A stretch of 64,000 bases of DNA from NCBI RefSeq assembly GCF_045037415.1, contig NZ_CP173438.1; one strand, 5' to 3'. Of the stretch, positions 41,407-56,230 are shown piece by piece. The stretch comes from Escherichia coli. Lineage in GTDB: Bacteria > Pseudomonadota > Gammaproteobacteria > Enterobacterales > Enterobacteriaceae. How positions within the stretch are numbered: the stretch's first letter is position 1; each line of letters begins with the position of its first letter. The position numbers and the translations under genes are program-made. The notes beneath the pieces are model-generated. The model did not search any database. It was not told the DNA's origin and saw nothing but the letters and a program-made list of their open reading frames with translations.

Positions 41407-41697
41407 TACATGTTGTAGCAACCCCGTACTGATTATGAAGAATAATCAGTACGGGGATTAATCAAAACATTCAATATTTATATATTCCAATATTTATTCA
41501 TTTTATATGTGAATATATTAACCAGCAGAATACCTGTGTTTTGATTATTTCTAAAGGTTTTGAATGAATGCTTATTGTCTGATACACAAGAAATAACACG
41601 CTTTTTATCGTTAAAAAATGATATTTCACTTTGCCCATGCCGTTAAAGTCACTGATAATGCGTCCGTTCGTAAATTCAAAATGGCGTAATCTAATAT

Positions 41698-43245: not shown

Positions 43246-43938
43246 CTAGTGATAACCACGCGCGGTCATAAAATCCGTAATCGCTTTTTCTGCATCAATC
43301 AGCACCTTTTCCAGTGGCTGATTAGCATCGATATCAACCAGTTGTGCACCGCCAAAGGTTAACTGTGGCGTTATGGCAATCTTCCTCGCCAGCGATTCCC
43401 GTTTATGGTCGGGTTTACGCGCGCAGGCAACTTCAAGGTCAACATTGAGTTTGATGACCAGATCAGGTTTATGGCTCGCCATCCAGTGAAACGCTTTACG
43501 TTCCTGGCTTGCCAGCCATGAGACAAAACGACCACCTTCAATGTTAGGTGGGAACACTGTACCATCGTAAGCGCCAGGAATTTGGTCCTGAGGATAACGG
43601 TCGGTTAGAACAATTAACCCGCGACGACGACAGGCAAGCATATGACGAAAGCGCAGTAAGCGACGGGCGACAAACGCTGTAATTACCAGCGCCGGAACTG
43701 GTCCTGGCAATTTTTTTGCTGTTTTCACCTGATTTCGTTCAATTGTTTTATGTAAGGATTTTCCCATCAACGGTAATTTTGTCACTGAACGACCGACATT
43801 TCCGGCCTGTTTTCCTAAATGAACTCTTTCGGCAGCACCATATTTTTCGACAACGGTAATGAGATGTTCACACACCGTTGACTTGCCTGAACCATCGCTA
43901 CCAATAACGGCAATTAATGGAGGTGTTATTGACTGCAT
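43246..43938 (-). CDS. yghT: P-loop nucleotide/nucleoside-kinase-like protein YghT
   Basis: 230-aa ORF with Walker [10 protein letters not shown], a TDRYPQ motif and a lid-like ARKPDH block; paralogous to the two following genes. Confidence 0.85.
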
Positions 43939-44111
43939 GAATATATCCTTTAATTTAAATATCCATTAAAAATATTTATTTGGTTAATATGTTTTTATGA
44001 AAGCGTAATTCAGGTCAATGTCACAATTAACCATTGTCACAATAAGGTTGAACGGATATTCTGAGCACGGACCACGTAATATTCAATACATTATTTGCTG
44101 CCGGGTTTTTC

Positions 44112-44825
44112 GTGAATCAACGTAATATGTCAATAATTAATTCCACGCCAGTGCGTGTTATTGCCATTGTAGGATGTGATGGTTCAGGTAAATCGACCCT
44201 CACGGCAAGCCTGGTAAATGAACTGGCAGCAACAATGCCAACAGAACACATTTATCTCGGGCAATCGTCCGGGCGAATTGGCGAATGGATTTCACAGCTC
44301 CCTGTTATTGGCGCACCTTTTGGGCGTTATCTGCGAAGTAAAGCGGCACATGTGCACGAAAAGCCCTCCACACCGCCTGGCAATATGACTGCGCTGGTTA
44401 TCTATCTGCTTTCCTGCTGGCGGGCGTATAAGTTTCGCAAAATGTTGTGTAAAAGCCAGCAAGGCTATCTGCTCATCACCGACCGCTACCCGCAGGTTGA
44501 AGTGCCGGGTTTTCGCTTTGATGGCCCGCAATTGGCAAAAACCACGGGCGGTAACGGTTGGATAAAAATGTTAAGGCAGCGCGAGCTGAAGCTGTACCAA
44601 TGGATGGCATCTTATTTGCCCGTATTGTTGATTCGTCTTGGCATTGATGAACAAACCGCGTTTGCGCGTAAACCTGACCACCAACTGGCGGCGTTACAGG
44701 AAAAAATCGCCGTTACGCCGCAACTGACATTTAATGGCGCCAGGATCCTTGAACTGGATGGTCGGCAACCAGCCGATGAAATTCTGCAAGCGTCACTACG
44801 CGCAATTCAAGCTGCGCTTTCCTGA
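44112..44825 (+). CDS. yghS: P-loop kinase-like protein YghS
   Basis: 237-aa ORF starting at GTG (44112); Walker A GCDGSGKST, TDRYPQ, ARKPDH. Confidence 0.85.
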   Translation: MNQRNMSIINSTPVRVIAIVGCDGSGKSTLTASLVNELAATMPTEHIYLGQSSGRIGEWISQLPVIGAPFGRYLRSKAAHVHEKPSTPPGNMTALVIYLLSCWRAYKFRKMLCKSQQGYLLITDRYPQVEVPGFRFDGPQLAKTTGGNGWIKMLRQRELKLYQWMASYLPVLLIRLGIDEQTAFARKPDHQLAALQEKIAVTPQLTFNGARILELDGRQPADEILQASLRAIQAALS

Positions 44826-44856
44826 TCACCAAAATGGATAGGGGATGATTTAACGA

Positions 44857-45630
44857 ATGGACGCACTACAAACACAAACTGTTAATAGTACAACCGCGCC
44901 GCAGCCCAACTACATTCCGGGGCTGATTGCGGTGGTCGGGTGTGATGGCACCGGTAAATCCACACTGACCACCGACCTCGTGAAATCGCTGCAACAACAC
45001 TGGCAAACCGAGCGGCGCTATCTGGGGCTGCTCTCGGGCGAAGACGGCGACAAAATCAAACGATTGCCGTTGGTTGGCGTCTGGCTCGAAAGGCGACTGG
45101 CGGCCAAATCATCGAAAACCCAAAGCATGAAAACCCAAAGCATGAAAACCAAATCTCCAGCGCTATGGGCGGCGGTGATTATGTACTGCTTCTCGCTGCG
45201 AAGAATGGCGAATCTACGCAAGGTTCAGCGACTGGCGCAAAGTGGCGTTCTGGTGGTCAGCGATCGCTTCCCGCAGGCTGAAATTTCGGGCTTTTATTAT
45301 GACGGACCGGGGATCGGCGTCGAACGTGCGACCGGGAAAATCAGCATGTTTCTGGCGCAGCGCGAACGGCGTTTATACCAAAAAATGGCGCAATACCGTC
45401 CTGAATTAATCATTCGTTTGGGGATTGATATTGATACTGCCATCTCCCGCAAGCCTGACCATGACTATGCCGAGCTGCAGGACAAAATCGGCGTCATGTC
45501 GACGATTGGCTATAACGGCACAAAAATTCTTGAGATTGATTCCAGAGCGCCCTACAGCGAAGTGCTGGAACAGGCACAGAAGGCGGTTTCTCTGGTTGCC
45601 ATCGTTTCTGACCGCCGAAGTTTAACTTAA
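44857..45630 (+). CDS. yghR: P-loop kinase-like protein YghR (carries an internal 5-aa tandem repeat)
   Basis: 257-aa ORF MDALQTQTVNSTTAPQPNYIPGLIAVVGCDGTGKST...; SDRFPQ and SRKPDH motifs. Confidence 0.85.
   Translation: MDALQTQTVNSTTAPQPNYIPGLIAVVGCDGTGKSTLTTDLVKSLQQHWQTERRYLGLLSGEDGDKIKRLPLVGVWLERRLAAKSSKTQSMKTQSMKTKSPALWAAVIMYCFSLRRMANLRKVQRLAQSGVLVVSDRFPQAEISGFYYDGPGIGVERATGKISMFLAQRERRLYQKMAQYRPELIIRLGIDIDTAISRKPDHDYAELQDKIGVMSTIGYNGTKILEIDSRAPYSEVLEQAQKAVSLVAIVSDRRSLT
45115..45150 (+). repeat. In-frame 15-bp tandem duplication inside yghR
   Basis: AAAACCCAAAGCATG occurs twice in tandem, followed by a partial third copy (AAAACC), encoding ...KTQSMKTQSMKTKS... Confidence 0.9.
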
Positions 45631-45675
45631 GGCTGGCGGGATACTTTTTACTATCAACGATAAGGTCAGGCTGAA

Positions 45676-47025
45676 TTGGCGGGTTTTAACATCAAACATT
45701 GGTTTGCAGATGGCGCGTTTCGCACCATTATTCGCAATAGCGCCTGGTTAGGCTCCAGTAATGTCGTGAGCGCTTTACTGGGTCTGTTGGCGCTCTCGTG
45801 TGCCGGTAAAGGGATGACGCCCGCCATGTTTGGCGTACTGGTGATTGTACAATCGTACGCCAAGTCGATCAGCGATTTTATTAAGTTTCAGATATGGCAG
45901 CTGGTGGTTCAGTACGGAACACCAGCATTAACCAACAATAATCCGCAGCAATTCCGCAATGTCGTCTCATTTTCCTTCTCGCTGGATATCGTCAGCGGCG
46001 CGGTGGCGATTGTCGGCGGCATTGCCTTACTCCCTTTTCTTTCCCATTCATTAGGTCTGGATGACCAAAGCTTTTGGCTGGCAGCGCTGTATTGCACGCT
46101 CATTCCTTCAATGGCTTCCTCCACGCCGACCGGCATTCTGCGTGCGGTAGATCGCTTCGATCTAATTGCTGTACAGCAAGCGACGAAACCTTTTCTGCGC
46201 GCAGCGGGGAGCGTCGTAGCCTGGTATTTTGACTTTGGTTTTGCGGGTTTTGTTATTGCCTGGTACGTGTCGAATCTGGTTGGCGGCACCATGTACTGGT
46301 GGTTTGCCGCGCGCGAATTACGCCGCAGAAATATCCATAACGCCTTCAAATTGAATCTGTTTGAGTCTGCCCGACACATTAAAGGCGCGTGGAGTTTTGT
46401 CTGGTCAACCAACATTGCCCACTCCATCTGGTCGGCGCGTAACTCGTGCAGCACAGTGCTGGTGGGGATCGTGTTAGGACCCGCTGCCGCCGGGTTATTT
46501 AAAATCGCCATGACATTCTTCGACGCCGCCGGAACGCCAGCGGGTTTACTGGGCAAAAGTTTTTACCCAGAGGTGATGCGTTTAGATCCGCGCACCACCA
46601 GACCGTGGTTGTTAGGCGTGAAGTCAGGTTTACTGGCGGGCGGAATTGGTATTCTGGTGGCGCTCGCGGTGTTGATCGTCGGCAAGCCGCTTATTTCGCT
46701 GGTGTTTGGCGTTAAGTATCTCGAAGCGTATGACCTGATTCAGGTGATGCTGGGCGCAATTGTGATTTCGATGCTGGGCTTCCCACAGGAGTCATTGCTA
46801 TTGATGGCGGGAAAACAGCGCGCTTTTCTCGTGGCGCAAACCATCGCCTCAATCGGCTACATCGTATTGCTGTTCATGTTCTGTCATCTGTTTGGCGTGC
46901 TGGGAGCAGCGTTTGCTTATTTCGGTGGGCAATGTCTGGATGTGGTGCTCTCGTTAATTCCGACCTTAAAGGCATTTTTTCAGCGCCATTCCTTGCTTTA
47001 TAACGCAGCCGGAGAGAAATCCTGA
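45676..47025 (+). CDS. yghQ: MOP-superfamily (Wzx-like) polytopic membrane protein YghQ; start uncertain
   Basis: 449-aa track ORF beginning at TTG 45676 with AAGG 9 nt upstream; highly hydrophobic multi-TM protein. Stop overlaps the start of the next gene (TGATG). Confidence 0.75.
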   Translation: MAGFNIKHWFADGAFRTIIRNSAWLGSSNVVSALLGLLALSCAGKGMTPAMFGVLVIVQSYAKSISDFIKFQIWQLVVQYGTPALTNNNPQQFRNVVSFSFSLDIVSGAVAIVGGIALLPFLSHSLGLDDQSFWLAALYCTLIPSMASSTPTGILRAVDRFDLIAVQQATKPFLRAAGSVVAWYFDFGFAGFVIAWYVSNLVGGTMYWWFAARELRRRNIHNAFKLNLFESARHIKGAWSFVWSTNIAHSIWSARNSCSTVLVGIVLGPAAAGLFKIAMTFFDAAGTPAGLLGKSFYPEVMRLDPRTTRPWLLGVKSGLLAGGIGILVALAVLIVGKPLISLVFGVKYLEAYDLIQVMLGAIVISMLGFPQESLLLMAGKQRAFLVAQTIASIGYIVLLFMFCHLFGVLGAAFAYFGGQCLDVVLSLIPTLKAFFQRHSLLYNAAGEKS

Positions 47026-47849
47026 TGATGAGAAAATATTTCCCGCTTGAGGCGAGCGAGCGTTTATTTGTTGCAGTTGAAGAAGATGATGTCGTTGATG
47101 CACAGGTCAGTTTGCCGCCGACTATCGCACTAAGTTGTACCACCGAAATCATCCATGATAATTACGCGTTATGCCTGCAATTCTGGCTCAATGGCGTCAA
47201 TCGCCAGGAGTTACTGCGTTTAATATGCAAACAGGCCAAAGGCGATGAGCTGACTGCTGATGAGCGCAAACAATTTAAATACATGCGAGCGCGCTACAAG
47301 CACCTGCGTTTTGCGCAACGGCTGTATTTAAAGAAGCATCAGGCCGGATTTTTATTCGGCAAAACGACCGTTTTTTTGGGGCGTTTTCAGGACGGTTTTC
47401 GTAACGGTAAGAAAAATATTGTGTCGTATTACGGCAACTTGTTACGGGTTTATTTAAGCTCTCCGGTCTGGTCGTTGGTGAACTATTCATTACGCCATAG
47501 CCAGTTAGAAAGCGTAAGCGGTTTTATTGCCTATCGGCAAAAGCAAATGCATACCCTGAAAGAGATAATTGCCAAACCGCGACTCACCGGCAGGGAATTT
47601 CATGATGTGCGAAAAATCATCAGCCAGCAGGTTTCTTATTACGACACCTTAAGATCGCTTGATCCTGAAAATAAAGAGGCGTTACAGATTTCCCGCTTCC
47701 TCGCCGCCATTAATGGCCTGATGGGGGATAAACACGACGACATGGTGGCGGATGATATGGAAAACCGCCAGTCGTATGATGCACCGGTGGCGCTGGATAG
47801 CGATATTCGCCAGCGCTTAGAGCTGCTGATTTCGCGTTTTCCGCTATAA
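47025..47849 (+). CDS. Hypothetical soluble protein, no recognisable family
   Basis: 274-aa ORF MMRKYFPLEASERLFVAVEEDD...; coding assignment rests on length, coupling to yghQ (1-nt overlap) and operon context. Confidence 0.6.
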   Translation: MMRKYFPLEASERLFVAVEEDDVVDAQVSLPPTIALSCTTEIIHDNYALCLQFWLNGVNRQELLRLICKQAKGDELTADERKQFKYMRARYKHLRFAQRLYLKKHQAGFLFGKTTVFLGRFQDGFRNGKKNIVSYYGNLLRVYLSSPVWSLVNYSLRHSQLESVSGFIAYRQKQMHTLKEIIAKPRLTGREFHDVRKIISQQVSYYDTLRSLDPENKEALQISRFLAAINGLMGDKHDDMVADDMENRQSYDAPVALDSDIRQRLELLISRFPL

Positions 47850-47857
47850 CCGGAGCA

Positions 47858-48421
47858 ATGATGTCATCTCGTTTGATTATTGCGCTGATTATCATGCTCT
47901 TAGCCCAGGGTGTGCAGGCACACAATTTTGTCACTGGCAAAACGGTTACCCCCGTTTATATCCAGGAAGGCGGCGAGCTGCTTCTGAATAGCGACGACGA
48001 AATTCACTACCAAAAGTGGAACAGCACACAGCTGGCGGGAAAAGTCCGCATTATCCAGTATATCGCCGGGCGTAAGTCGGCGAAGAAAAAGAACTCACTG
48101 TTAATTAAAGCGGTTGAAGCGGCAAACTTTCCGCAGGATCGTTTTCAGCCCACCACCATTGTGAACACCGATGATGCCATCTTTGGTACTGGCTATTTTG
48201 TCGTTGGCAAAATCGAAAAAAATAAACGCCGCTATCCGTGGGCGCAATTCGTTATTGACGGCAATGGACTGGGACGCGTTGCCTGGCGGTTGCCGGAGCA
48301 GAGTTCAACCATTCTGGTGCTGAATAAAGACGGGCAAATTCAGTGGGCAAAGGACGGCAGCCTGACGCCGGAAGAGGTAGATCATGTCATTGCGCTGGCG
48401 CAGAAACTGATCAATGAATAA
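47858..48421 (+). CDS. YtfJ-family periplasmic protein
   Basis: 187-aa ORF with signal peptide MMSSRLIIALIIMLLAQGVQA and GGAG Shine-Dalgarno; body resembles my recollection of YtfJ (QKWNS..LAGKVR..QYIAGR, TTIVNTDDAI, LNKDG..QWAKDG.LTPEEV). Confidence 0.65.
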   Translation: MMSSRLIIALIIMLLAQGVQAHNFVTGKTVTPVYIQEGGELLLNSDDEIHYQKWNSTQLAGKVRIIQYIAGRKSAKKKNSLLIKAVEAANFPQDRFQPTTIVNTDDAIFGTGYFVVGKIEKNKRRYPWAQFVIDGNGLGRVAWRLPEQSSTILVLNKDGQIQWAKDGSLTPEEVDHVIALAQKLINE

Positions 48422-48451
48422 AAAATTCAAAGGATTGAGGGTGTTAGTGAG

Positions 48452-49522
48452 ATGAAGCTGGTTGAACACTACATCATGCGTGGTACGCGCCGTCTGGTGC
48501 TGATTATCGTCGGTTTTCTGATCTTTATTTTCGCCAGCTACTCCGCACAGCGTTATCTGACCGAAGCGGCAAATGGGACCTTAGCTCTTGATGTTGTGCT
48601 GGATATCGTTTTCTACAAAGTGCTGATTGCACTGGAGATGTTGTTACCTGTTGGTCTGTATGTGTCAGTTGGCGTGACGCTAGGGCAGATGTATACCGAC
48701 TCGGAAATTACCGCTATCTCTGCGGCGGGGGGCAATCCGGGACGCTTGTACAAAGCCGTTCTTTATCTGGCGATACCGCTAAGTATTTTTGTCACCCTTC
48801 TGTCGATGTATGGTCGGCCGTGGGCTTATGCGCAGATTTATCAACTGGAGCAACAGTCGCAGTCGGAGCTGGATGTTCGCCAGTTGCGGGCAAAGAAATT
48901 TAACACTAACGATAACGGACGAATGATCCTTTCGCAGACGGTTGATCAGGATAATAATCGCCTGACTGACGCGCTGATTTATACTTCTACTGCCAATCGA
49001 ACCCGCATTTTCCGCGCCCGTTCGGTTGATGTGGTTGACCCATCACCTGAGAAACCGACCGTTATGTTGCATAACGGGACCGCCTATCTTCTCGATCATC
49101 AGGGGCGTGACGACAACGAACAGATCTACCGTAATCTGCAATTACATCTGAATCCGCTGGATCAAAGCCCTAACGTCAAACGCAAAGCAAAATCGGTCAC
49201 GGAGCTGGCGCGCTCAGCCTTTCCTGCCGATCATGCCGAACTGCAATGGCGACAAAGCCGTGGCCTGACAGCATTGTTGATGGCGCTGCTGGCCATTTCA
49301 TTAAGTCGGGTAAAACCGCGGCAAGGGCGATTTTCAACGTTATTGCCACTGACATTGCTGTTTGTTGCCATTTTTTATGGCGGCGACGTCTGCCGTACGC
49401 TGGTGGCTAACGGTGCGATTCCCCTCATTCCTGGTTTGTGGTTAGTACCCGGACTCATGCTAATGGGCCTGCTGATGCTGGTCGCACGCGACTTCTCTTT
49501 GCTGCAGAAATTTTCCCGATGA
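48452..49522 (+). CDS. LptF/LptG-family (YjgP/YjgQ) permease paralog
   Basis: 356-aa ORF: three N-terminal TM segments, a central soluble domain and C-terminal TM segments, the architecture of LPS-export permeases. Confidence 0.75.
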   Translation: MKLVEHYIMRGTRRLVLIIVGFLIFIFASYSAQRYLTEAANGTLALDVVLDIVFYKVLIALEMLLPVGLYVSVGVTLGQMYTDSEITAISAAGGNPGRLYKAVLYLAIPLSIFVTLLSMYGRPWAYAQIYQLEQQSQSELDVRQLRAKKFNTNDNGRMILSQTVDQDNNRLTDALIYTSTANRTRIFRARSVDVVDPSPEKPTVMLHNGTAYLLDHQGRDDNEQIYRNLQLHLNPLDQSPNVKRKAKSVTELARSAFPADHAELQWRQSRGLTALLMALLAISLSRVKPRQGRFSTLLPLTLLFVAIFYGGDVCRTLVANGAIPLIPGLWLVPGLMLMGLLMLVARDFSLLQKFSR

Positions 49523-50598
49523 ATGTTTTCAGTCGCTATTTAATCCGTCATCTCTTTCTCGGTTTTGCCGCCGCCGCAGGGCTATTGCTGCCGCTTTTTA
49601 CCACCTTCAACCTGATTAACGAACTGGATGATGTCAGCCCGGGCGGTTATCGCTGGACTCAGGCGGTGCTGGTGGTGCTGATGACCTTACCGCGTACACT
49701 GGTCGAACTTTCGCCGTTTATCGCATTATTGGGAGGGATTGTTGGCCTGGGGCAGTTATCGAAAAACAGTGAGCTTACCGCCATTCGCAGCACTGGGTTT
49801 TCTATCTTCCGTATTGCACTGGTGGCGCTGGTTGCCGGGATATTGTGGACTGTTTCGTTAGGCGCGATAGATGAGTGGGTGGCGTCGCCATTGCAGCAAC
49901 AGGCGCTGCAAATCAAATCGACTGCCACCGCGTTGGGGGAGGACGATGACATTACCGGCAATATGCTTTGGGCCAGGCGCGGTAATGAATTTGTGACGGT
50001 GAAATCGCTGAACGAGCAGGGCCAGCCTGTGGGCGTGGAGATATTTCATTATCGCGACGATCTCTCGCTCGAATCCTACATTTTTGCACGCAGTGCCTCC
50101 ATTGAAGACGACAAAACGTGGATCCTGCATGGTGTGAATCATAAAAAATGGTTGAATGGCAAAGAAACGCTGGAAACATCAGATAATCTTGCCTGGCAAT
50201 CGGCCTTCACCAGTATGGATCTTGAAGAGTTATCGATGCCGGGGAATACTTTTTCTGTCCGTCAGCTTAATCATTACATCCATTATTTGCAGGAAACCGG
50301 ACAACCCAGCAGCGAATACCGCCTTGCACTGTGGGAAAAACTGGGGCAACCGATCCTGACCCTGGCGATGATTTTGCTGGCTGTGCCGTTCACCTTTAGC
50401 GCCCCGCGCTCGCCAGGGATGGGTAGCCGTCTCGCTGTAGGCGTCATCGTTGGCTTACTCACCTGGATCAGCTATCAAATCATGGTCAATCTGGGATTGT
50501 TATTTGCGTTGAGCGCACCTGTTACCGCGCTCGGTTTACCGGTAGCGTTTGTGTTGGTGGCGTTGAGCCTGGTGTATTGGTATGACAGACAACATTAA
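49519..50598 (+). CDS. LptF/LptG-family (YjgP/YjgQ) permease paralog, LptG-like
   Basis: Track ORF 49438..50598; preferred start ATG at 49519 (MNVFSRYLIRHLFLGFAAAAGLLLPLFTTFNLINELDDV...) overlapping the upstream stop (ATGA). The N-terminus and LSKNSELTAIRSTGFS block parallel E. coli LptG. Confidence 0.78.
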   Translation: MNVFSRYLIRHLFLGFAAAAGLLLPLFTTFNLINELDDVSPGGYRWTQAVLVVLMTLPRTLVELSPFIALLGGIVGLGQLSKNSELTAIRSTGFSIFRIALVALVAGILWTVSLGAIDEWVASPLQQQALQIKSTATALGEDDDITGNMLWARRGNEFVTVKSLNEQGQPVGVEIFHYRDDLSLESYIFARSASIEDDKTWILHGVNHKKWLNGKETLETSDNLAWQSAFTSMDLEELSMPGNTFSVRQLNHYIHYLQETGQPSSEYRLALWEKLGQPILTLAMILLAVPFTFSAPRSPGMGSRLAVGVIVGLLTWISYQIMVNLGLLFALSAPVTALGLPVAFVLVALSLVYWYDRQH

Positions 50599-50632: not shown

Positions 50633-51805
50633 TTACTGCTTCAGAGTAGCAAATGCCTGAATGATGGCATCGATTTGCTCACGACTGTGGGCAGCGTTTA
50701 CGCTACAGCGCAGCAGAGTGATGCCTGCAGGCGCGGCAGGTGGCAGGATAAGATTCACATAAACGCCCAGCGAAATAAGCTCGCGCCAGATGCGTAAACC
50801 TTCCTCTTTCGAACCGATTATTACTGGCACTACCGGGCTAATATGTGAACTTAACTCATAACCCAGTTTTTGCAGACCGTCATACAGATGGTTGGCGTTA
50901 TCCATCAGTTTTTGCCGCAGCTCTGGTTGTGTGGCAATGGTTCTTAACGACGAGCGCACGGTCGCAATGCAGGACGGAGAAGGAGAGGCGGTAAAAATAT
51001 ACGGGCGGCTGCCGTAGCGCAGCACTTCCATCGCTTCCGAACCGACAGCAAAACCGCCAATCGAGGCCAGACTTTTACTGAAAGTACCAACGATAATATC
51101 CACATCATCTTCAACGCCAACGGCTTCAGCCAGTCCGCGCCCCGTTGCGCCTAACACGCCAAACGAATGCGCTTCATCGACAATCAAATAACCACCGAGA
51201 CGACGTTTGATATCAACAATTTCCGCTAACGGCGCAACGTCACCGAGCATGCTGTAGATGCCCTCAACGATGATAATCGCCTCTTTCGCCCGTTCACCGA
51301 GGCGAACCATGCGCCGTTCCAGATCTTTAGCATCGTTATGGCGGAAACGAATAATTTCTGCGCCACCGAGAGAACAGGCGTCATAAATACTGGCGTGGCT
51401 GTCGGCATCCAGTAACACCACGGCGTTATGGTCGGCAAGTGCGCTGATGACGCCTAAATTAGCGGTATAACCGGTTGAAAAAACGATAGCGGTAGGGCGA
51501 TTGAAAAACTCGGCAATCTCTTTCTCTAACGCCAGGTGCGGCGCATAACTGCCGTTTGCCATACGAGAACCGGTGGTGCCGGTGCCTTGGGCCGCTAACG
51601 CTGCCTGACCTTCGGCGATGGCATCATGATTAAAGGTTAAACCGAGATAATTATTGGTCCCGGCCAGAATCACTTTTTTATTGCCGATCCGACCTTCGGT
51701 GGCGGAATACACTTCATCAATACAGGTGCCAAACGGTGTTAACCCGTTGTCACTAAATTGCAGTCGCTCGCCAGCAAGGCGCGCATATTTATCGTATAGC
51801 CCCAT
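50633..51805 (-). CDS. PLP-dependent alpha-oxoamine synthase (serine palmitoyltransferase / BioF / Kbl family)
   Basis: 390-aa ORF with VDEAHSFG and the PLP-lysine block GTFSKS; start ATG overlaps the ACP stop (TAATG). Confidence 0.85.
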   Translation of the reverse strand: MGLYDKYARLAGERLQFSDNGLTPFGTCIDEVYSATEGRIGNKKVILAGTNNYLGLTFNHDAIAEGQAALAAQGTGTTGSRMANGSYAPHLALEKEIAEFFNRPTAIVFSTGYTANLGVISALADHNAVVLLDADSHASIYDACSLGGAEIIRFRHNDAKDLERRMVRLGERAKEAIIIVEGIYSMLGDVAPLAEIVDIKRRLGGYLIVDEAHSFGVLGATGRGLAEAVGVEDDVDIIVGTFSKSLASIGGFAVGSEAMEVLRYGSRPYIFTASPSPSCIATVRSSLRTIATQPELRQKLMDNANHLYDGLQKLGYELSSHISPVVPVIIGSKEEGLRIWRELISLGVYVNLILPPAAPAGITLLRCSVNAAHSREQIDAIIQAFATLKQ

Positions 51806-52053
51806 TATTTATTCTCCAGCCATGGAAGTAGAGTTTCCATTAATTGCGCAGGGGTTTTGACATCCAGCAGAATATTAATAGGAATGGAAATATCGAATCT
51901 GTCTTCCAGCATCATTAAGAGATCCATCACTTTGATCGACTCCAGGCCAAGATCGTTGACGAGATCGCTGTCGGGCTTAATTTCCACACCGTTTTCGACC
52001 AAATCCTGTAAACAGGAAAGGATGTAATCCATTACTATTTCACGATTTACCAT
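51805..52053 (-). CDS. Acyl carrier protein
   Basis: 82-aa acidic protein with a phosphopantetheine-attachment-like DLGLESI motif. Confidence 0.75.
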   Translation of the reverse strand: MVNREIVMDYILSCLQDLVENGVEIKPDSDLVNDLGLESIKVMDLLMMLEDRFDISIPINILLDVKTPAQLMETLLPWLENK

Positions 52054-52084: not shown

Positions 52085-52999
52085 TCAAAATAGCCCGTTG
52101 CGTAATGCGTGTTCCAGGCTAATCCCGGGAAACCAATTAATATCTTCAGAAATACGGTTATTACTTGCCGACCAGTCGGCATGGGTTAATTCACGGATTT
52201 TCGAACGAGTCAGCATCGGTTCTTTACCCGCCAGACGGCTCAACGCGGTACTGATATCCGCAAGGCAGGTGAGTAGCGGCAGAGGAATACCGACCATCCG
52301 CACGGAACCACAGCGGACATCGGCAACAAGCTGTTGGACACGTTGCCAGTCATAGCCTCCGGCGACGCCATCGCATAATTCATAGGTTTGCGTCTGTACA
52401 GTTTCGGCGCTTAACCACTGACCCACTGCTTGCGCAAAATCGGTGACGTGCAGGAAAGAGAGCTGTGTCTCTGGCGTGCCAAGTCGTGGCAGCAGACCGC
52501 GCAGCATCCAGTCAAACAGCGGTTTTAACTCTTTATCGCCGGGACCATACACGGCTGTCGGGCGAAAAACGCCCAACGTAATTGCGTCAGCCATTGCAGT
52601 CAGCTGTTGTTCGGCGACGTGTTTGGAATTTGCGTACCAGGAGAGTTCGGGATGGCGCGCCGCCAGCGAAGAGATAAACAGAAATCGTTGGCAAAAGCCG
52701 CTCTCTTTTGCCGCTTGCATCAGGCGCAGGCTGCCGTCAACGTTGCAGCGGGTAAAAATCTCTTCTTTGTGCCCGCGCACTTGCCCGGCGCAATGGACCA
52801 CCGCGCTGGCTCCGGTAACCAGTTCGCTAAGCGAATGTGTATCTTCCAGCGAACCGCGCACCCAAGTGAGATTATCATTGACGTGAGCGCGGGCAGTACG
52901 CGTCAATGCGCGAACGTGAAAGCCGCGGGCGAGCAGGTTATCAATAATATATTTACCGATAAACCCGGTAGCGCCCGTCACCGCGACAGTTTGATTCAT
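52085..52999 (-). CDS. NAD(P)-dependent epimerase/dehydratase-family (extended SDR) reductase
   Basis: 304-aa ORF with Rossmann VTGATGFIG and catalytic YxxxK (YANSK); start ATG overlaps the upstream stop (ATGA). Confidence 0.82.
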   Translation of the reverse strand: MNQTVAVTGATGFIGKYIIDNLLARGFHVRALTRTARAHVNDNLTWVRGSLEDTHSLSELVTGASAVVHCAGQVRGHKEEIFTRCNVDGSLRLMQAAKESGFCQRFLFISSLAARHPELSWYANSKHVAEQQLTAMADAITLGVFRPTAVYGPGDKELKPLFDWMLRGLLPRLGTPETQLSFLHVTDFAQAVGQWLSAETVQTQTYELCDGVAGGYDWQRVQQLVADVRCGSVRMVGIPLPLLTCLADISTALSRLAGKEPMLTRSKIRELTHADWSASNNRISEDINWFPGISLEHALRNGLF

Positions 53000-54744
53000 G
53001 CCAGGGACTCCTGCACATGAAGACTGGCAGCATAAGCCTTCTGATAACGTTTTTTCGCTTCCGCACGGGCAGGCTTGCCGGAGGATGTTCGGGGAATACT
53101 GTGGGGCGGCAACAGATCGATATCCGCGGTAACGCCAAATTCGCTTTGGATCCGTGCTGCCAGCGCGTGGATAAGCTGCCCGCGACGTTCTTCATCGCTG
53201 ATCCGACACTGGATCTGCAAAATGATTTTTTCCTGGGCGGTAACAAAAGCAATCGCATCGCCAGAATGAATTTCCGGTTCCTGTTCCGCAATATATTCAA
53301 TATCCTGCGGCCAGATATTACGGCCACGAATAATAATCAGATCTTTAATGCGTCCGGTGACATACAGATAACCGTCCAGCAGATAACCGAGGTCGCCGGT
53401 GTCTAACCAGCCCGTCGCGGCAATCTCGTCTTGTGAAATCTGGTCGCCAAAGTAACCGCTCATCAGGCTAGGGCCGGAGATGCAAATATGGCCTACCACA
53501 CGTTCCGCGACAGGTATACCTGCTTCATTGCGGATTTCAATGCCATGTTCCGGCAACGCTTTACCGCAGTTGACGAAAGTCGATACGGCGCGTGTTTCAG
53601 CACCCGGCGCGACGGCTTTACCCTGGTATTCGAGGATGTCGCGATCCACTTCGTTAACCACAACCCCGGAAGCTTCATCAGAGAAGCTGACAGCCAGCGC
53701 ATTTTCTGCCAGTCCGTAGCACGGCATGAAAGTTTTATCGTCAAAGTTGACCTGACGGAAACATTCAGCGAATTGATGGAGTTGTTCTGCGGAGATGGGT
53801 TCTGCACCAATACCAGCGACGCGCCAGCAGGAAAGATCCAGTTCAGCGAGATCTTTTTCATTCACGCGGCGCTGGCACAATTCATAGCCAAACGGCGGCG
53901 CAACGGAAACGGTGCCGCGATTTTTACTGATCAATTTAAGCCATTGCAGAGGACGCATGGCAAAATCCTGAGTGCGCAAATAATCTACTGAAAGCTGCGT
54001 GGCGACGGGGGTCAGGAGAAAGCCGACCAGTCCCATATCATGGTAGAAAGGCAGCCAGGAGACGCAGCGGTCGCCAGGGCGTAATTTAATCCCATCGTGG
54101 CTTATAGCACGTAGATTAGCCATCACTTCGCGGTGAGTAATGATAACGCCACGGGGAAAACGGGTGCTGCCGGAGGTGTACTGGAGGTAGGCGATATCGT
54201 TTGGAACTGGACGTTGAAGCGCAACATCGGCTTCCGGTAATGCCTTAAACCAGGCGTGGCTTAAAACATGTAATTCGGGATTGTTATGCGTCGCGGCATT
54301 GACCAGTGGCAACCACTCATCACCAGTGATAATGGCTGCGGGCTGGCAACTTGCCAGTAACCCCTGCAGTTTGGCGCTCCAGGAATCCCGCTGACCGACG
54401 CCCATTGGAATCGCCAACGGGACGGCGACTAAGCCGGCATACTGGCAGGCAAAAAAAGCCTCTACAAACCCGCTACTCGTTTCGGCAATCAGTGCCACGC
54501 GATCGCCTTTTTTCAGGTTCAGCGATAACAACCGCTTCGCACCAGCTTCGGCACGCGCTTTTAACGTCTGATATTCCAGTTGATCTTCAAGTTGGCAACG
54601 TCTGTCATAAAAATTCATTCCAGCGCTACTCAGAGCGGCATAGTCCAAAGCATCAACCAGCGTTGGAAAATCGGCATAGCGCATAGGTAGGGAATGCGTA
54701 AAGATTTTATTAGACATATACACCACGAAAAAATTGGATATCAA
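52996..54744 (-). CDS. Fatty acyl-AMP ligase / acyl-ACP synthetase (AMP-dependent synthetase family); start uncertain
   Basis: Track ORF starts at TTG 54744; an in-frame ATG at 54717 (MSNKIF...) is the alternative. AMP-binding core YTSGSTRFPRGV and a C-terminal ...SGKPAR... block. Confidence 0.82.
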   Translation of the reverse strand: MISNFFVVYMSNKIFTHSLPMRYADFPTLVDALDYAALSSAGMNFYDRRCQLEDQLEYQTLKARAEAGAKRLLSLNLKKGDRVALIAETSSGFVEAFFACQYAGLVAVPLAIPMGVGQRDSWSAKLQGLLASCQPAAIITGDEWLPLVNAATHNNPELHVLSHAWFKALPEADVALQRPVPNDIAYLQYTSGSTRFPRGVIITHREVMANLRAISHDGIKLRPGDRCVSWLPFYHDMGLVGFLLTPVATQLSVDYLRTQDFAMRPLQWLKLISKNRGTVSVAPPFGYELCQRRVNEKDLAELDLSCWRVAGIGAEPISAEQLHQFAECFRQVNFDDKTFMPCYGLAENALAVSFSDEASGVVVNEVDRDILEYQGKAVAPGAETRAVSTFVNCGKALPEHGIEIRNEAGIPVAERVVGHICISGPSLMSGYFGDQISQDEIAATGWLDTGDLGYLLDGYLYVTGRIKDLIIIRGRNIWPQDIEYIAEQEPEIHSGDAIAFVTAQEKIILQIQCRISDEERRGQLIHALAARIQSEFGVTADIDLLPPHSIPRTSSGKPARAEAKKRYQKAYAASLHVQESLA

Positions 54745-55087
54745 AAATAAAATGACAATAATGCGGTGGATTATATAGGCATAAAAGATAAATGAGATAG
54801 TATTTTCATCGGTGCGATATTGAACATTGATTTAAATAATAGGTTTTGTTTTGTTGTTTTTATTGTGAATGATATTTGATTTATGAATGTATTAAGAATG
54901 AACCTTGTCTGACCGCATTAAATCGCTAAAAGGCATTGTGGCGCTTCTTCGTTGGCTGTGATCTTATCGTAATCATTAATAAATAATATTTATTCTTATT
55001 TTGTATTCATGGTGTTGATTATTAAGATGCCGTTCGTTGCTGTTGCAACCTGTTTTTCATCGTTAATTATTTGTTATCCACAGAGAT
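54745..55087. promoter_or_regulatory. AT-rich divergent intergenic region between the lipid-synthesis operon and yghO
   Basis: ~340 bp of visibly AT-rich sequence with A/T tracts (e.g. TTTTGTTTTGTTGTTTTTATTGTGAATGATATTTGATTTATGAATG) between two divergent starts. Confidence 0.4.
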
Positions 55088-56230
55088 ATGGAATGCGATC
55101 TGCTGATGATTAAAATTGAAAAAGTAATTAATAAAAATGACCTTAAGGCATTTATCGCTTTTCCGTCATCACTTTATCCCGACGATCCAAACTGGATACC
55201 CCCTTTATTCATTGAACGCAACGAGCATTTGTCTGCGAAAAATCCGGGGACGGACCATATCATCTGGCAGGCGTGGGTGGCAAAAAAAGCGGGGCAGATA
55301 GTTGGGCGTATTACCGCGCAAATAGATACCTTGCACCGCGAGCGTTACGGCAAAGATACCGGTCATTTCGGCATGATTGACGCCATTGATGATCCGCAGG
55401 TTTTTGCCGCGTTGTTTGGCGCAGCGGAAGCGTGGTTGAAGTCACAAGGTGCAAGTAAGATCAGCGGTCCTTTCAGCCTGAATATCAATCAGGAAAGCGG
55501 ATTACTGATTGAAGGTTTCGATACACCACCCTGTGCGATGATGCCGCACGGTAAACCGTGGTATGCCGCGCATATTGAACAATTGGGTTATCACAAAGGC
55601 ATTGATTTACTGGCGTGGTGGATGCAGCGAACCGATCTCACTTTCTCTCCGGCGCTAAAAAAACTGATGGATCAGGTGCGTAAGAAGGTGACCATTCGCT
55701 GCATCAATCGCCAGCGGTTTGCCGAAGAGATGCAGATCCTGCGTGAGATTTTCAATTCTGGCTGGCAGCACAACTGGGGATTTGTGCCGTTTACCGAACA
55801 TGAATTCGCGACCATGGGCGACCAACTTAAATATCTGGTGCCGGACGATATGATCTACATCGCTGAGATTGATTCTGCACCCTGCGCGTTTATTGTCGGC
55901 TTGCCAAACATCAACGAGGCGATTGCCGATCTGAACGGATCGCTCTTTCCCTTCGGCTGGGCAAAATTGCTGTGGCGTTTAAAAGTCAGCGGTGTGCGAA
56001 CTGCGCGAGTACCGCTGATGGGCGTGCGGGACGAGTATCAGTTCAGCCGCATCGGCCCGGTGATTGCGTTGTTATTGATTGAAGCCTTACGCGATCCGTT
56101 TGCCCGCCGGAAGATCGATGCGCTGGAGATGTCATGGATCCTCGAAACCAATACAGGCATGAATAACATGCTGGAACGCATTGGGGCGGAGCCGTACAAG
56201 CGTTACCGATTGTATGAAAAGCAGATTTGA
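55088..56230 (+). CDS. yghO: GNAT-like acyltransferase-family protein YghO, apparently intact
   Basis: 380-aa continuous ORF MECDLLMIKIEKVINKNDLKAF... (alternative start ATG at 55106). I recall K-12 yghO being annotated as a pseudogene. Confidence 0.7.
   Translation: MECDLLMIKIEKVINKNDLKAFIAFPSSLYPDDPNWIPPLFIERNEHLSAKNPGTDHIIWQAWVAKKAGQIVGRITAQIDTLHRERYGKDTGHFGMIDAIDDPQVFAALFGAAEAWLKSQGASKISGPFSLNINQESGLLIEGFDTPPCAMMPHGKPWYAAHIEQLGYHKGIDLLAWWMQRTDLTFSPALKKLMDQVRKKVTIRCINRQRFAEEMQILREIFNSGWQHNWGFVPFTEHEFATMGDQLKYLVPDDMIYIAEIDSAPCAFIVGLPNINEAIADLNGSLFPFGWAKLLWRLKVSGVRTARVPLMGVRDEYQFSRIGPVIALLLIEALRDPFARRKIDALEMSWILETNTGMNNMLERIGAEPYKRYRLYEKQI

Follow-up and report, generated by a model that had tools for sequence, protein, structure and literature searches.

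The E. coli contig NZ_CP173438.1 carries, in the 64,000-nucleotide stretch analyzed here (the window), the gene yghO and the operon aasR-epi-acpR-spt, which belong to one dihydroceramide gene set and are separated by a long AT-rich gap. The literature on the E. coli locus reports no native product or inducing condition, which raises the questions of what the gap does and why a product of these genes has escaped notice. A reading of the sequence alone had described the gap as a control region and a likely site of H-NS silencing, which would account for the unnoticed product. As a type of element, an AT-rich divergent promoter region is commonplace; the gene set beside it is known but barely studied. 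The genes concerned are the following.

55088-56230, plus strand: yghO, N-acyltransferase of the 'aca'/bCerS type (ceramide-synthase-type), with an alternative start at ATG 55106
52996-54717, minus strand: aasR, fatty acyl-AMP ligase (specialised acyl-ACP synthetase); Pfam AMP-binding, E = 2e-58; RefSeq
52085-52999, minus strand: epi, NAD-dependent epimerase/dehydratase-family reductase, CerR-type; Pfam and annotation
51805-52053, minus strand: acpR, specialised acyl carrier protein, 40.6% GC; Pfam; corresponds to c3714 (249 nt) in CFT073
50633-51805, minus strand: spt, serine palmitoyltransferase; Pfam and annotation

Transcription of the two gene sets runs outward from the gap in opposite directions and no gene lies between them, which is the arrangement of a divergent region. 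The operon begins with aasR, the equivalent of ECD_02851 in BL21, and all five homologues of the ceramide set are present and clustered. Pfam domains back four of the five enzymes; YghO has no Pfam match, and its assignment as an N-acyltransferase is taken from PMC9386255. That study (Padilla-Gomez et al. 2022) gives the dihydroceramide set of BL21(DE3) as ECD_02851-02854 plus yghO (ECD_02850, the N-acyltransferase 'aca') and, among the genomes compared there, finds the five genes clustered in Caulobacter and E. coli only. The sphingolipid locus of Caulobacter crescentus comprises the homologous genes spt (CC_1162), acpR (CC_1163), epi/cerR (CC_1164), aasR (CC_1165), and aca/bCerS (CC_1154). 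Unlike in Caulobacter, the acyltransferase gene of Enterobacterales sits back-to-back with aasR across an AT-rich gap.

AasR identity within Escherichia is 95 to 97%, and dN/dS among Escherichia clades lies between 0.02 and 0.11 for all five genes (aasR, 0.04-0.09; epi, ~0.10; spt, ~0.02-0.06; yghO, 0.03-0.07), except for a single acpR comparison with a value of 0.80 that is based on very few substitutions. Ratios in this range indicate that the five-gene pathway is kept by purifying selection, so that it should be functional and must be expressed somewhere. Overexpression of E. coli AasR, AcpR, and SPT yields 3-oxo-sphinganine, and BL21 carrying empty vectors or its own SPT alone produces none (PMC9386255). 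Since BL21 keeps aasR and acpR, the missing 3-oxo-sphinganine suggests to us that the chromosomal copies are not expressed in LB at 30°C. Among the papers searched, none connects yghO or the ECD_0285x genes with H-NS or with regulation, and none gives expression data for the locus.

The stretch upstream of spt, 43246-50598 (yghT to an lptG paralogue), encodes LptF and LptG paralogues, a YtfJ-family protein, a hypothetical protein, the Wzx/flippase-like YghQ, and three P-loop kinase-like proteins, YghR, YghS, and YghT. Judged by their predicted products, these genes may supply the other half of a sphingolipid pathway, head-group modification and export; K-12 keeps just the yghQ(truncated)-yghT portion. 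Shimwellia pseudoproteus has a second yghO homologue (74% identity) without an adjacent aasR/spt operon, and yghO-like genes are therefore also found outside the cluster. A 430-bp contig labeled 'Macrococcus' that matches E. coli yghO at 99% identity appears to be contamination.

We then delimited the gap from the start codons of its two neighbors. The longer AasR form, which begins MSNKIFTHSLPMRY, is matched from its first residue by homologues in other genera and is backed by this cross-genus conservation, and TGGTGTA-TATG is conserved ahead of the start codon. The conserved N terminus and the conserved GGTG ahead of the ATG point to ATG 54717 as the aasR start codon, which sets the intergenic region at 54718-55087. 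Two other starts, TTG 54744 and the RefSeq ATG 54684, were ruled out by the N-terminal conservation across genera. The span first singled out, 54745-55087, keeps its right edge and is slightly off at its left edge. RefSeq itself is inconsistent in starting the fatty acyl-AMP ligase, with a 1689-nt form (54684) and a 1722-nt form (equivalent of 54717). On the other side, all other genera start YghO at the codon that corresponds to E. coli Met7 (ATG 55106), and a TAAGG Shine-Dalgarno sequence precedes it by 7-8 nt. This TAAGG is lost in Escherichia, and the RefSeq start ATG 55088 has just a weak GAGA upstream, so that E. coli may initiate yghO translation inefficiently. Should Met7 be the start of yghO, the intergenic region would reach to 55105.

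The aasR/yghO gap thus comprises 370 bp and is the longest among the 27 annotated intergenic gaps of at least 50 bp in the window. Its GC content of 29.7% compares with a window mean of 51.1%, and its AT content is far above the genome mean, in the intergenic DNA only. Windowed GC, the check that had been proposed for the span 54745-55087, likewise gave 29.7%, well below the window mean (z = -4.2). The description of the gap as the most AT-rich stretch stands at some scales and not at others: the minimum-GC windows of 200, 343, and 500 bp across all 64 kb every one lie inside it (30.2% GC at the 500-bp scale), but at the 100-bp scale 41456-41555, in the gss/pitB gap, drops lower, to 20% GC, and as whole regions the gss/pitB gap (29.9% GC) and the yghT/yghS gap (30.1% GC) are level with it. 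The gss/pitB gap spans 41407-41697 (291 bp) and holds the lowest-GC 100-bp window of the whole sequence.

A composition of this kind might reflect only the usual intergenic bias, exaggerated by mutation and IS traffic, in DNA that just houses ordinary promoters. Intergenic regions in the window average 42% GC and two or three other gaps lie at about 30%, in line with this explanation. Its weak point is persistence. In a scan of species-representative genomes, the back-to-back layout of yghO and aasR-epi-acpR-spt was found at ~40 loci in ~15 genera, with representatives in Citrobacter, Pseudocitrobacter, Pluralibacter, Shimwellia, Serratia, Erwinia, Pantoea, Hafnia, Rahnella, Tatumella, Rosenbergiella, Cedecea, Sodalis, Klebsiella indica, and two Pseudomonas loci. 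The gap between yghO and aasR measures 271-1095 bp in other genera, and its GC averages 14.6 points under that of the locus (19 representative loci from ~15 genera); a long gap of depressed GC has thus been kept at the same position. No conserved ORF was found in the gap in other genera, longer gaps included, and a search for 10-mers shared across genera returned nothing beyond A/T runs. Since the AT-rich gap is retained and no such 10-mer is shared, length and composition, not sequence, are conserved between genera. All Escherichia clades and many Enterobacterales carry the locus; it is ancestral to Escherichia, has normal GC, and is not recently acquired foreign DNA.

Within E. coli, the intergenic region is single-copy and was found in 4157 of 5426 complete genomes. 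Compared with the allele of the window, identity is bimodal, with 480 genomes at 99% or above, 3351 at 90-95%, and 325 at 80-90%; the majority of alleles are ~10% diverged. The window is 100% identical to several ST131-like isolates, and the YghO protein can be identical despite intergenic divergence, as in CFT073 and the window. In O157:H7 Sakai (3.81-3.93 Mb), only ~14.5 kb lie between the end of SpLE3 (pheV) and yghA, where K-12 and CFT073 carry the glc, yghO, pitB, and hyb genes; in O157:H7 the ceramide locus probably is missing or lies elsewhere.

Counting invariant alignment columns over eight Escherichia sequences divided the gap into three blocks.

54718-54835, minus strand: block A, 118 bp beside aasR, 92% invariant; presumed aasR promoter, 5' UTR, and operator platform
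54836-54965, no strand: block B, variable central spacer, 46% invariant with indels; T-rich tract and a GC-richer island at ~54905-54960
54966-55087, plus strand: block C, yghO-proximal, 56% invariant; presumed yghO promoter and 5' UTR

The first part of block A, 54718-54810, has 3 variable columns out of 93 in these eight sequences, in which the adjoining coding 5' ends are 87% and 78% invariant. Block A is conserved significantly above block B (Fisher p = 3e-16), block C, and the coding ends (p = 0.014), and it shows weak cross-genus similarity to Citrobacter, Pseudocitrobacter, and Hafnia. This pattern indicates that non-coding block A is under strong purifying selection, a constraint that mere compositional bias does not account for. 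The fast evolution of the central and yghO-proximal parts, with indels, is in turn in line with such a bias. The divergence between E. coli alleles is focused in blocks B and C and suggests either old allelic classes or fast spacer evolution. Taken together, the gene layout, the ~40 syntenic loci, and the conservation of block A bear out the original description of the DNA between yghO and the lipid operon as a divergent control region.

Conservation above that of the neighboring coding DNA could also mean that block A hides a small RNA, a leader RNA or riboswitch, or a translated leader peptide, and small ORFs do occur (18 codons on the minus strand and 34 on the plus strand). An Rfam scan of the gap, however, gave no match at E up to 1, and RNA folds of both putative leaders were no better than shuffles (z of -1.4 to +0.5). 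The 34-codon ORF (55009-55113, plus) was rejected because its ATG is absent from other Escherichia lineages. The 18-codon ORF (54826-54770, minus) has no Shine-Dalgarno sequence, carries few substitutions, which are mostly non-synonymous, and is absent in other genera. We regard a hidden element of this kind as highly improbable.

Scans of the gap for promoters, folded RNA, and regulator sites yielded the following candidates.

54775-54770, minus strand: candidate aasR -10, TATAAT, perfect and invariant in Escherichia; PWM scan
55001-55006 (-35, TTGTAT) and 55023-55028 (-10, TAAGAT), plus strand: candidate yghO promoter, PWM score 7.1
55036-55049, plus strand: hairpin GTTGC-TGTT-GCAAC followed by a T run, terminator-like; the sole stable fold element
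55062-55076, plus strand: ArcA-box-like GTTAATTATTTGTTA, 13/15 matches, 12-26 nt before ATG 55088; p ~0.02 uncorrected

The sigma-70 PWM was a simple one, and its outcome is indicative only. Upstream of the candidate aasR -10, the candidate -35 (ATCTCA, 54798-54793, minus) is a weak match; as a prediction only, transcription of aasR would start near 54763 and leave a 5' UTR of ~46 nt. The candidate yghO promoter predicts a start near 55035 on the plus strand; its -10 reads TAAGGT, i.e., is weaker still, in most other alleles. The best sigma-70-like score anywhere in the gap was 8.5, which is below that of 98.4% of dinucleotide shuffles, while the best scores of four other intergenic regions of the window resembled those of their shuffles. 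A second scan found 2 promoter-like sites where 2.9 were expected. The gap therefore is not a promoter island, as such sites are not enriched. It seems, by these scores, to avoid strong promoters, which would fit activator-dependent expression. Depletion of strong promoter-like sites relative to composition is also hard to reconcile with compositional bias as the whole explanation, which we consider improbable.

The hairpin at 55036-55049 is probably not essential, given that two Escherichia lineages lack seven of its bases. Comparison of the gap with consensus sequences for 24 regulators left no site after multiple-testing correction. Among these 24 motifs, ArcA-, FadR-, and NarL-like matches had uncorrected p values of 0.01-0.03. 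The ArcA-box-like sequence is largely conserved in Escherichia and serves as a lead only; the FadR-like match was discarded, because arbitrary filler bases inflate it and two lineages lack part of it.

Genome comparison with K-12 pointed to a simple answer to the question of the missing lipid. In MG1655, IS5 (insH9) replaces everything left of ~55128 up to yghQ (NC_000913.3 3130146-3131340), a deletion that begins within yghO, of which ~40 bp at the 5' end are gone, and takes all of the gap and the lipid operon up to the truncated yghQ. This IS5-linked deletion is the simplest, first-order reason why the lipid has gone unseen in the standard laboratory strain. The original proposal, that H-NS silencing explains the unnoticed product, did not take this loss into account. 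The gene annotated in K-12 as 'YghO, putative DNA-binding regulator' is what remains of an acyltransferase gene, fused to IS5. In other strains, IS1 has inserted at ~54780 (21AH057, with loss of yghO), ~54850 (Ecol_AZ146), and ~55236 (Ec-RL2-1X). With IS5 in K-12, this amounts to at least four independent insertions in or beside the gap and makes it an IS hot spot. Insertions within the gap are in keeping with IS traffic as a contributor to its composition. They also fit reports that IS5 and other elements favor AT-rich, H-NS-bound DNA as a target.

This last point bears on a stronger role of H-NS, in which an H-NS/StpA complex nucleated by the gap is the main cause of silence of both operons and removal of H-NS suffices for ceramide synthesis. 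At ~70% AT over 370-500 bp, the gap is the most AT-rich patch of the locus, and the apparent silence of the locus in BL21 in LB agrees with such a role. The extreme AT content makes the gap a likely short binding patch, and we consider it quite likely that H-NS and StpA bind there in vivo. Several sequence features expected with H-NS silencing were nevertheless not found. The gap holds 21 A/T tracts of at least 4 bp, which the sequence-only reading had called phased; AA/TT periodicity at 10-11.5 bp was not above that of dinucleotide-preserving shuffles (p = 0.26), so that this part of the description found no support. Curvature gave no better support: in an approximate wedge model, mean curvature resembled the rest of the window, the end-to-end ratio did not differ from shuffles (p = 0.13), and a single local bend lay near 54794. 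No site within 1 mismatch of the H-NS nucleation motif (TCGATAAATT-like) occurs in the gap; the best match (7/10) was equalled or beaten by every shuffle.

The surroundings of the gap likewise speak for a limited role. High AT content is confined to the intergenic DNA, the flanking genes having 50-55% GC (aasR, 52%; epi, 55%; spt, 52%; yghO, 50%; within the operon, acpR is highest in AT), and a long silencing filament is therefore not expected. Flanking genes that are AT-rich and recently acquired, which would allow a multi-kilobase filament, were not found here. Because the region is missing in K-12, H-NS ChIP data from K-12 cannot address the gap. We thus used the H-NS/StpA ChIP-seq data of Hustmyer et al. 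(2022) for the UPEC strain CFT073, which carries the locus, with the gap at NC_004431.1:3544845-3545220; the corresponding table (Data set S1E) is gene-averaged, scores genes and not intergenic DNA, and lists 795 H-NS-bound genes. In this data set, c3714 (acpR), yghS, and yghT are called bound by both H-NS and StpA, and the c3714 signal drops to background in the hns mutant. These AT-rich patches show that H-NS and StpA do reach the locus. By the same gene-averaged call, the list of H-NS-bound genes does not include aasR, epi, spt, or yghO, and any H-NS patch between aasR and yghO should therefore be short or weak. The genes yghT and yghS span 43246-44825 and flank the 30% GC gap mentioned above. 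ChIP data for ETEC H10407 give CRP sites alone, none of them near the locus.

Kahramanoglou et al. (2011) reported that H-NS patches of the short upstream class modulate mildly, 40% of the targets being changed when hns is mutated, and that silencing goes with H-NS regions of more than 1 kb. The aasR/yghO gap resembles the short-patch promoter regions of that study in being operon-upstream, a few hundred base pairs long, and AT-rich with normal-GC flanks, and the yghT/yghS gap of the same locus behaves like this class in the CFT073 ChIP data. Unlike the class, the aasR/yghO gap shows no nucleation motif or curvature and its flanking genes are not called H-NS-bound. It shares with the xenogeneic multi-kilobase H-NS/StpA filaments of LEE, kps, hly, and bgl the apparent laboratory silence, the AT-rich control region, and the attraction of IS elements; unlike in those systems, the ceramide genes are not AT-rich, the locus is ancestral and under purifying selection, and there is no sign of a long filament. 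Like the 'promoter islands' of PMC7054387, the gap is AT-rich upstream DNA near apparently silent genes. According to that source, promoter islands carry an excess of promoter-like sites bound by RNAP and H-NS at silent, horizontally acquired genes, the opposite of the gap, whose sites number 2 against 2.9 expected and whose best site is weaker than 98% of shuffles. Given also that the gap has no strong promoter to silence and that the locus is not recent foreign DNA, we think it doubtful that H-NS is the main cause of silence.

The reading we prefer, and hold to be probable, is that the gap is an ordinary divergent regulatory region with one weak, conditional promoter each way and H-NS as a modulator. 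It would be the non-coding divergent regulatory region of the dihydroceramide set, between yghO and aasR-epi-acpR-spt, and the single weak promoter in each direction would probably be activator-dependent or condition-dependent. The aasR promoter, a short 5' UTR, and the operators would sit within the 118 bp of block A. A short H-NS/StpA patch, not a multi-kilobase xenogeneic silencing filament, would dampen both promoters, modulating what is already weak. A more far-reaching version, which we put forward tentatively and regard as somewhat unlikely, is that block A is a platform for a condition-specific activator or counter-silencer that turns on ceramide synthesis in E. coli and its relatives, and that the depletion of strong promoters reflects selection keeping the pathway off until a signal arrives.

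For the biology of E. coli, this means that about three quarters of complete genomes, including UPEC, ST131-like strains, and BL21, hold an intact ceramide set under selection. As predicted from its genes, this set would let most E. coli, K-12 excepted, make ceramide-type lipids natively. The gap almost certainly carries the weak, regulated promoters of both gene sets. Corrected boundaries, a constrained 118-bp block, a weak-promoter signature, and the absence from K-12 are the starting points gained. The gap is the place where regulation of the ceramide set must be read out and thus an entry point to when E. coli makes sphingolipids. If block A is indeed an activator platform, the factor that acts on it would reveal when and why E. 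coli does so.
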